Assembly: GCA_013375475.1 (NCBI GenBank)
Contig: JABXKD010000012.1
Coordinates: forward strand, 1-58,819
Reading direction: 5' to 3'
DNA length: 58,819 bases
Source: Promethearchaeota archaeon
Lineage (GTDB): Archaea > Asgardarchaeota > Lokiarchaeia > Sigyniarchaeales > SOKP01
The notes beneath the pieces are model-generated. The model was not told the origin of the DNA. It saw only the letters and a program-made list of their open reading frames with translations, and made no database searches. Of the stretch, positions 25,642 through 25,877 are shown in pieces. Each line of letters opens with the position of its first letter. Position 1 is the stretch's first letter. The position numbers were made by a program, and so were the translations under genes.

Positions 25642-25877
25642 TTATGAAATGGTTGTTAGTGGTGTTTTTAACCACATAATCTCGTAGCGATTAGCTACAA
25701 CGCCGGAAGTTAAACTGTTTTGCGTTGCAAATAGTACTGTAGTTGAAAATCTATGGGAACTTGCAAACTGTAGCTTCGGCTACGGTCATGGTAATACAGG
25801 ATAGTACCCGGTACCATCCGAACCCGGAATCGTAAATGTGGTTAAAGAATATCACTGAAATCGTTATTTCTTCATAA
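25642..25877 (+). repeat. Long imperfect inverted repeat (processing stem) enclosing the permuted 5S rRNA
   Basis: TTATGAA/TTCATAA (25642-48/25871-77), ATGGTT/AATCGT, and TTAGTGGTGTTTTTAACCACAT (25656-77) pairing with ATGTGGTTAAAGAATATCACTGA (from 25836). Confidence 0.85.
25709..25829 (+). rRNA. rrf: 5S rRNA, circularly permuted gene (3' half 25709-25774, UUCG linker 25775-25778, 5' half 25779-25829); predicted 121-nt circular product
   Basis: 5' half GCTACGGTCATGG...TACCCGGTACCATCCGAACCCGGAA and 3' half GTTAAACTGTTTTGCGTT...AGTACTGTAG...CTATGGGAAC match the archaeal 5S pattern; helices I (ACTGTAGC/GCTACGGT), II (GTAATACAG/CTGTTTTGC), III, IV (CTGTAG/CTATGG), V (GCAA/TTGC), loop C CCGAAC and loop E AGUA/GAA can all be drawn. 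Confidence 0.9.

Follow-up and report, generated by a model that had tools for sequence, protein, structure and literature searches.

A permuted 5S ribosomal RNA gene in a Promethearchaeota archaeon, with predicted splicing and ligation of its product into a 121-nt RNA

The window analysed here, a 58,819-base stretch of DNA from a Promethearchaeota archaeon (assembly GCA_013375475.1, contig JABXKD010000012.1, positions 1 to 58,819), contains on its forward strand a 5S ribosomal RNA (rRNA) gene (25709-25829) in which the 3' half lies upstream of the 5' half. The upstream part (25709-25774) comprises the 3' side of loop B, the 3' strand of helix II, helices V and IV with loops E and D, and the 3' strand of helix I. 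The downstream part (25779-25829) encompasses the 5' strand of helix I, loop A, the 5' strand of helix II, and helix III with loop C, and ends in CCGGAA. Both parts were assigned on the basis of relaxed Rfam matches, covariation and alignment of the joined sequence. At the usual 5' and 3' ends of the molecule the two parts are connected by a UUCG tetraloop (25775-25778), read directly from the sequence and closed by covarying pairs, which caps a helix I of 8 base pairs (bp) including one G-U pair. Copies of CCGGAA are found at 25703-25708 and 25824-25829. A preliminary description of this DNA had proposed the swapped halves, the UUCG cap and the CCGGAA repeats, and all of its coordinates proved correct in the sequence.

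Elements on the same strand outline a motif of the bulge-helix-bulge (BHB) type around the swapped halves. The 5' strand of its central 4-bp helix, CCGG (25703-25706), pairs with 25824-25827 according to covariation; the latter segment is the 3' strand of helix III and doubles in the precursor as the 3' strand of the central BHB helix, a single alignment column covarying with both partners. BHB motifs are cleaved after the second nucleotide (nt) of each bulge, a rule that places the predicted cuts at 25708/25709 in the 5' bulge AAG (25707-25709) and at 25829/25830 in the 3' bulge AAU (25828-25830). The 3' bulge is evident in the sequence, and in one of the sequencing runs considered below (X5) a loose contig end at 25829 continues into the first letters from 25709. 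Comparative alignment defines a proximal outer helix formed by ACG (25700-25702) and CGU (25831-25833). Further out, a distal processing stem joins 11 nt at 25667-25677 to 25836-25846; it is indicated by covariation and is also present in the single-sequence minimum free energy (MFE) structure. Between the distal stem and the BHB motif, the MFE structure places a small hairpin in the 5' flank (25684-25698), with a 5-bp stem and a 5-nt loop, for which four of the five pairs vary on both sides and 75.5% of the cells are paired. A TATA-like A/T-rich box at 25621-25638, within an upstream block conserved in the family alignment, is the putative archaeal promoter of the 5S precursor, and TTTATAT-type boxes are clear in GC-richer members of the phylum, 30-45 nt 5' of the stem. 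A run of five T at 25884-25888 is a putative archaeal terminator, a T-run followed by AA being conserved at this place in the family alignment. Overall, the data indicate that the segment 25700-25833 is very probably the only 5S rRNA gene of this organism, encoded in permuted order, with a product that is spliced and ligated to 121 nt.

Rfam searches at the gathering score, which for the 5S rRNA model RF00001 is 38 bits, returned no match anywhere in the window. At a relaxed E-value, the native order yielded two sub-threshold RF00001 matches, one at 25674-25772 (17.3 bits) whose good alignment is confined to the 3' part of the model and one at 25778-25863 (18.6 bits) for which it is confined to model positions 1 to ~52. 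Jointly they cover the model once, in swapped order, and linear models do therefore see this gene as partial matches, as had been anticipated. The joined sequence (25779-25829 followed by 25709-25774, 117 nt) was compared not with RF00001 but with a profile and pairwise alignments of five collinear 5S genes from a sister family. It gave a single nhmmer match covering positions 6-113 of the profile hidden Markov model (27.2 bits, E 6e-10), and the native order gave two split matches to the same profile, again swapped. In pairwise alignment to the collinear 5S genes, 77-85 of 118-120 positions were identical for the joined order, versus 35-48 for the native order. The earlier proposal that the rearranged sequence is a full-length 5S rRNA is hence supported by both the profile match and the pairwise alignments. 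The MFE structure of the joined 117 nt is the canonical three-arm 5S fold (-31.3 kcal/mol), and the 5S three-way-junction structure is supported by compensatory changes in the family alignment, with 95.8% of cells paired, 19 of 33 pairs varying on both sides and none of 500 shuffles reaching its score.

Of 101 family genomes searched by blastn with 25642-25877, 82 contain the locus in this order. An alignment of 29 intron-free loci, comprising 28 distinct sequences (alignment A1), was used to build a covariance model (R1) and to score a precursor structure made up of helices I, II, IV and V together with the outer and BHB helices. In this structure 91.9% of cells are paired, compared to 74.6% in shuffled alignments, and 24 of the 37 pairs vary on both sides. 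The covariation score of 0.508 contrasts with 0.178 in shuffles, none of 500 of which reach it, and with 0.08-0.11 when the partners are slid. At the second position of the central BHB helix, 16 of the 28 distinct sequences have C-G, 12 have U-A and none is unpaired, and relatives with CCAG in the downstream copy carry CUGG upstream. Because CUGG stands upstream wherever CCAG stands downstream, the upstream CCGG is the complement of the downstream copy and not a repeat of it, a relationship that the palindromic CCGG of the window hides. The 5' strand of helix III covaries just as strongly with this downstream column (16 C-G and 12 U-A with each partner), and this dual covariation therefore supports two alternative pairings of the downstream CCGG, one before and one after ligation.

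The pairs surrounding the motif behave similarly. Under the tetraloop, the three closing pairs of helix I covary strongly (one, for instance, is C-G in 12 sequences, A-U in 9 and G-C in 7), and the last pair is never unpaired. The proximal outer helix shows G-C (13), A-U (9) and other pair types, with 25-26 of the 28 sequences paired at each position. Across 25 distinct sequences, the 11-bp distal stem has 85% of its cells paired, and both sides vary in 8 of its 11 pairs; in a longer alignment, the distal stem and the proximal helix together present 86.8% paired cells versus 76.0%, and a score of 0.311 versus 0.155. Relatives of the window's organism hence share not only the permuted order but also covariation in the BHB helix and the stems, a point that the preliminary description had put forward for checking. 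The core of the distal stem, AACCAC/GUGGUU (25667-25677 with 25836-25846), is nearly invariant in the family, beyond the needs of pairing, and may be recognised by a protein.

Evidence for the motif was also observed outside the family. When BHB candidates were ranked by the length of their outer helix, a procedure that is informative only for GC-richer lineages, the top-ranked candidate fell exactly at the junction in 12 of 20 loci from other families, with an outer helix of 8-15 bp. For these 12 loci the predicted circles measure 115-129 nt and the joined sequence is a normal loop B. The central helices themselves differ among lineages (CGUG/CACG, CCGA/UCGG and CCGC/GCGG).

Junction-level evidence comes from assembled contigs of sequencing runs. 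Fourteen runs listed as RNA or possibly RNA, 10 of which are on record as RNA, contained 0.46 of 22 sampled words of 25642-25877, about the share expected from the 121-nt core alone; the word shares of runs without contig inspection are not counted as evidence of expression or habitat. Contigs were inspected for four runs, each from a different study. Three of these runs (X2, X8 and X9) contain a contig that joins 25823 to 25703 with 0 mismatches, a back-join of 121 that is ambiguous by 6 nt and equivalent to a join of 25829 to 25709. Every joining contig is 151 nt long, that is, 121 + 30, and depth is zero in all bins outside 25699-25830. This length is taken to mark a closed cycle assembled with words of 31 letters, a word length assumed from the run index. 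RNA-library contigs cover the 5S core at depths of 3.7-113, and the loose ends of contigs from relatives read loop C, helix III and loop B continuously. The fourth run, X5, contains no contig across the join, and its 8-letter loose end, although consistent with the join, is not counted as support. The junction-spanning RNA predicted from the sequence has thus been found, with the expected 121-nt back-join, in contigs from three studies. Regarding the proposal that cuts at AA^G and AA^U release 121 nt, the joined 121-nt form is present in the contigs, but the exact bond is one that we infer, because the join falls within the 6-nt repeat. Together with the 4-nt linking loop, the closed-cycle contigs lead us to infer that both halves are transcribed as one unit.

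The case for a single 5S gene was addressed in the assembly and in related genomes. The assembly consists of 288 contigs with 6.4% contamination, and its sole RF00001 match over the cut-off (51.9 bits) lies on a 16.9-kb contig, C263, that carries a bacterial operon of 16S (1533.7 bits), two tRNAs, 23S (1396 bits) and 5S. The G+C content of this contig (0.329) is close to that of the genome (0.325), and it is therefore best read as probably a binned contaminant. Standard annotation of this genome would report a single 5S, the one on this contig. The archaeal 16S stands alone on contig C222 (102936-104338), and the archaeal 23S appears to be absent from the assembly, where the archaeal large-subunit rRNA model matches the bacterial contig only. 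The preliminary description had called for a check on collinear copies, and no archaeal collinear 5S over the RF00001 cut-off is present in the assembly, the sole collinear match being that on the bacterial rRNA-operon contig. RF00001 likewise returned no match over the cut-off in the 18 other genomes of the genus, 15 of which contain sub-threshold matches, often as adjacent pairs. The same holds for the five closed or near-closed genomes (three of them single-contig), in which seven sub-threshold RF00001 matches fall at or beside the permuted locus detected by R1, four of them forming two adjacent pairs.

Within the family, the R1 model matches 118 of the 131 other genomes, nearly all of them a single time, and it also matches two other families of the order. 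On a family with collinear 5S genes it reaches only 26-30 bits. Across the phylum, R1 matches 69 of 151 genomes; outside the window's family these amount to 44 of 125 genomes in 18 families, mostly with 46-87 bits over the full model. All 20 of the R1 loci inspected from other families present the 3' part, a capped helix I and the 5' part in this order. RF00001 matches over the cut-off were obtained in 50 of the same 151 genomes, distributed as 25 of 26 in family f9, 17 of 19 in f14, 3 of 5 in f18, 1 of 2 in f2 and three single genomes. None of the 25 genomes of the window's family (f1) had such a match, nor did any of those in the other permuted families, with the exception of one tandem-array genome. 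The R1 and RF00001 sets overlap in three genomes, namely the window's own, due to the contaminant, the tandem-array genome, and one with a cross-match on a collinear gene. The permuted and collinear families are nearly complementary, and the trait is sharply structured.

A tandem array is the textbook route to a permuted gene. The tandem-array genome mentioned above (G248, locus L141) contains several short contigs (C90, C106 and C132), each with an R1 match at a contig end, one of which overlaps an RF00001 match over the cut-off; these contigs probably represent a tandem 5S array, in which both the permuted and the collinear order can be read. Separately, a closed 4.4-Mb genome of the sister family carries three collinear 5S copies in tandem, ~375 nt apart (G026:C1:1399892-1400758; loci L009 and L032).

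Several observations weigh against the interpretation of this locus as a permuted gene processed through a BHB motif. As would be expected of a permuted member, the native locus fails to match RF00001 over its full length at 38 bits. The 5' bulge lacks a convincing inner helix: at most three pairs, all of them invariant, can be formed if the bulge is taken as 2 nt, and since all inner-helix columns are invariant they lie outside the reach of covariation. The single-sequence MFE structure of the precursor contains the distal stem and the 5' hairpin and neither the BHB motif nor the 5S fold, and that of the circle is a non-5S rod with a z-score of only -1.8. In A/T-rich DNA a loose BHB scan produces many chance candidates, and the true site of the window is not the top-ranked one. 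With regard to the RNA, run X5 contains a 208-nt contig that is collinear with the genome from 25617, reaching into the promoter region, and that may be DNA or precursor. More generally, the evidence consists of assembled contigs and not of reads, it carries no information on ends, strand or abundance, and the library label is compatible with DNA. Lastly, the assembly yielded no archaeal 23S and hence does not contain a full set of rRNA genes, and the case against another 5S gene rests mainly on the closed relatives. Given that there is no clear inner helix beside the 5' bulge, the BHB motif is here of the relaxed helix-bulge-helix (hBH) form, with a 3' bulge of 3 nt. The pairing ACG-CCGG-AAG/CCGG-AAU-CGU put forward in the preliminary description therefore stands for the central and outer helices, which covary, and is weakened for the 5' bulge.

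Comparison among relatives also identified junctions at a different position. In five genomes, four represented in a 58-locus alignment and one belonging to another genus, the junction lies in loop C rather than in loop B (loci L014 in G015, L069 in G092, L072 in G093, L075 in G109 and L085 in G034). The loop C junctions have their own outer GCG/CGC helix and 4-bp helix, and cuts after the second bulge nucleotide restore a canonical loop C. One genome of this type belongs to the same genus as the window's organism and has an upstream flank nearly identical to that of a loop-B-type genome (G006), and the point at which the gene is opened has therefore moved recently.

Relatives further present candidate introns. 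For 35 of the 58 aligned loci the predicted circle measures 119-123 nt, for 17 it measures 149-153 nt and for one 181 nt; the remaining loci are the four with a loop C junction and one cut by a contig end. The additional length corresponds to 19 insertions of ~30 nt in 18 of the 58 loci, of which 13 are in loop C, three in helix IV, one in loop D and two in helix I (examples are found at L046 in G009, L021 in G006, L017 in G013, L053 in G102, L077 in G110, L080 in G077 and L083 in G055). Those in loop C and helix IV present a 4-bp helix, two 3-nt bulges and an inner hairpin, and the cleavage rule removes exactly the insertion, as determined by hand check and by scan; the intron scan is very noisy and was used only to confirm sites already visible as alignment insertions. 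Insertions in helix I and loop D fit a BHB less well, with three of four central helix pairs in one and no clear fit in the other. Judging from these features, the insertions would be introns in a 5S rRNA gene. At locus L131, in a single-contig genome (G163), the 7-nt motif formed by the central helix strand and bulge occurs twice upstream, 30 nt apart and with a hairpin in between, and the top BHB candidate predicts a 153-nt circle; this doubling looks like a BHB intron located exactly at the junction.

These elements suggest a maturation pathway in which a precursor of ~230 nt would be transcribed from its own putative promoter, extending from the A/T-rich box at ~25621-25638 to the T-run at 25884-25888. 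Its flanks would pair into a long processing stem made up of the distal 11-bp helix, the small 5' hairpin and the proximal 3-bp helix. This stem would present the BHB motif, with the upstream CCGG paired to the CCGG that later forms the 3' strand of helix III. The splicing endonuclease would then cut each bulge behind its second nucleotide, at 25708/25709 and 25829/25830, and an RtcB-type ligase would join the ends of the excised 121 nt. Ligation is predicted to rebuild a continuous loop B between helices III and II, leaving the usual 5S ends closed by UUCG on helix I.

The enzymes acting in this pathway would presumably be EndA and RtcB. Two EndA paralogues of 200 and 202 amino acids (aa) were identified, 34% identical to each other and each with N- and C-terminal domains (tRNA_int_endo matches of 99.1 and 70.4 bits), together with one RtcB (560.7 bits). 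Only the first paralogue has a histidine at the position that we take to be that of the catalytic histidine, and the pair would fit a heterotetramer with catalytic and structural subunits. Endonucleases of the heterotetramer type have a broad specificity for relaxed BHB motifs.

With regard to the final form of the RNA, the evidence favours, with some reservation, the mature circle itself, and not a re-opened form, as the species built into ribosomes. No second BHB or conserved opening signal was found at the helix I cap, which across the phylum is a tight tetraloop or a longer closed hairpin. Escherichia coli is viable with a 5S rRNA in which a 4-nt connector links the native ends, according to the excerpts available of that study (PMC7283268), and a capped helix I is therefore compatible with function. 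Extended to the phylum, which its gene families mark as apparently the Asgard archaea, the balance tips slightly towards a large share of its members having as ribosomal 5S a covalently closed circle, made by the tRNA-splicing machinery from a permuted gene. On this view the opening point and the small BHB introns would have moved around the molecule in evolution because the product is a circle, with junctions in loop B or loop C and ~30-nt insertions spread over loops C and D and helices I and IV.

A less probable possibility, which nonetheless deserves serious attention, is that the circle is an intermediate only, opened again, perhaps at or close to the helix I loop, and that ribosomes carry a linear 5S with conventional ends. 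Re-opening is commonly assumed for archaeal 16S and 23S, and contigs such as those recovered here cannot show RNA ends or relative abundance. However, a cap kept as a tetraloop or longer hairpin across the phylum, with covarying closing pairs and no second BHB, is not what re-opening at this point would lead one to expect, and in the 151-nt contigs the cycle runs closed through the loop, unbranched and with the flanks uncovered. Functional circles also exist, as reported in excerpts on the circular SRP (signal recognition particle) RNA (PMC4731332) and on circular 23S in ribosomes (PMC12918454).

It is far more doubtful that the joined RNA is made by other enzymes, for instance by trimming RNases together with an ATP-dependent RNA ligase, the route taken by circular C/D box RNAs. 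In Sulfolobus and Halobacterium, collinear 5S gives rise to low-level circles without a BHB (PMC3326292 and PMC12558985, as excerpted), and the 5' bulge of the present motif is relaxed. Against this, a covarying 4-bp helix, 3-nt bulges and an outer helix lie exactly at the join, for two junction positions and in many families, and in every case the joined sequence predicted by the BHB cleavage rule is the canonical one. Finally, it is extremely improbable that the locus arose by misassembly or is a decayed pseudogene, with the ribosome served by a normal 5S missing from the fragmented assembly, since the number of contigs, the contamination and the missing archaeal 23S are outweighed by the same order in 118 of 131 other family genomes, by five closed or near-closed assemblies (three single-contig) with a permuted locus and no collinear 5S over the cut-off, by compensatory changes in all helices and by RNA contigs identical to the window that carry the join.

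Permuted tRNA genes are known in Thermofilum, and 5S rRNA, a universal component of the ribosome, is regarded as having a simple collinear gene. No description of an archaeal permuted 5S gene or of a 5S intron was found in the full-text literature, a scope that leaves out most subscription journals and makes prior publication possible. The comparisons that follow draw on excerpts of the cited reports. The closest system is the SRP RNA of Thermoproteus tenax (Plagens et al. 2015, eLife, PMC4731332), which likewise has a permuted gene for a universal structured RNA and no canonical gene, with termini cut by the tRNA splicing endonuclease and a ligated circle that restores an important region. 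Here, in contrast, the RNA is ribosomal and the arrangement extends over many families of a phylum instead of some Thermoproteus species, a tetraloop closes off the former termini and the position of the junction varies by lineage. Protein binding and in vitro cleavage have been shown for the T. tenax SRP RNA, whereas the 5S described here is known from sequence and RNA contigs. The permuted tRNA genes of Cyanidioschyzon merolae (Soma 2014, PMC3978253) also have the 3' half upstream, a BHB formed by the flanks and a circular intermediate obtained through endonuclease and ligase; that circle is re-opened to a linear tRNA by RNase P and tRNase Z, and no such signal is apparent in the 5S.

In archaeal 16S and 23S (PMC12918454 and PMC10515664), excision by EndA from a long BHB-bearing stem and circularisation are likewise observed, and in some archaea the circle or a permuted form is the ribosomal species. 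There, collinear genes give a circle in which the natural ends are joined, whereas in the 5S analysed here the gene is permuted and ligation creates the normal connectivity; one of these reports states, in the text excerpted, that circularisation concerns 16S and 23S "but not 5S rRNAs" (PMC12918454). The view in the preliminary description that no permuted 5S gene had been described needs qualification, as a brown-algal mitochondrial 5S has been reported, which differs in kind and involves no splicing in the excerpted account (PMC4267664). This brown-algal and stramenopile mitochondrial 5S (Valach et al. 2014) shares a closed hairpin at helix I and is missed by standard models. Only its alpha domain is rearranged, however, its ends lie at the three-way junction and its product is permuted too, with no BHB, ligation, circle or splicing in the same excerpts. 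An engineered E. coli circularly permuted 5S (cp5S; Huang et al. 2020, PMC7283268) also has its native ends linked by a 4-nt connector and works in ribosomes, but it is artificial, opened in loop D or loop C, tethered into 23S and not circular. The low-abundance archaeal 5S circles (Danan et al. 2012, PMC3326292; PMC12558985) are likewise circular 5S-derived RNAs, and differ in arising from collinear genes, with heterogeneous junctions and, as far as the excerpts describe them, no BHB; their authors read them as minor intermediates or degradation products.

A permuted 5S gene that functions only once its product is spliced and ligated would extend the disrupted-gene logic of tRNA and SRP RNA to ribosomal RNA and tie ribosome biogenesis to the tRNA-splicing enzymes. 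If the circular reading is true, 5S maturation would depend on EndA and RtcB and the product would be the first natural circular 5S rRNA. Permutation explains why standard tools find no 5S in these genomes, a fact that bears on genome-quality standards requiring a 5S gene. The breadth of the comparative support is unusual and is complemented by junction-level RNA support. The arrangement would also open the presence of a circular rRNA in ribosomes to direct test, in a phylum that matters for the question of how eukaryotes arose.

In the window, the 5S gene lies between a peptidase C25 family gene (23389-25512) and a 184-aa open reading frame with no Pfam match (25933-26487). ARAGORN detected no tRNA in the 58,819 bases, the 5S gene being unlinked to other rRNA or tRNA genes, and there is therefore no tRNA-like processing signal beside it. 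An eIF2-gamma-like gene is located at 21072-22124, and a gene for a Ras/Roc-family small GTPase (172 aa, E 3e-41) followed by a PIN-domain gene at 29426-30395; the GTPase and eIF2-gamma-like genes are consistent with an Asgard-type gene content.

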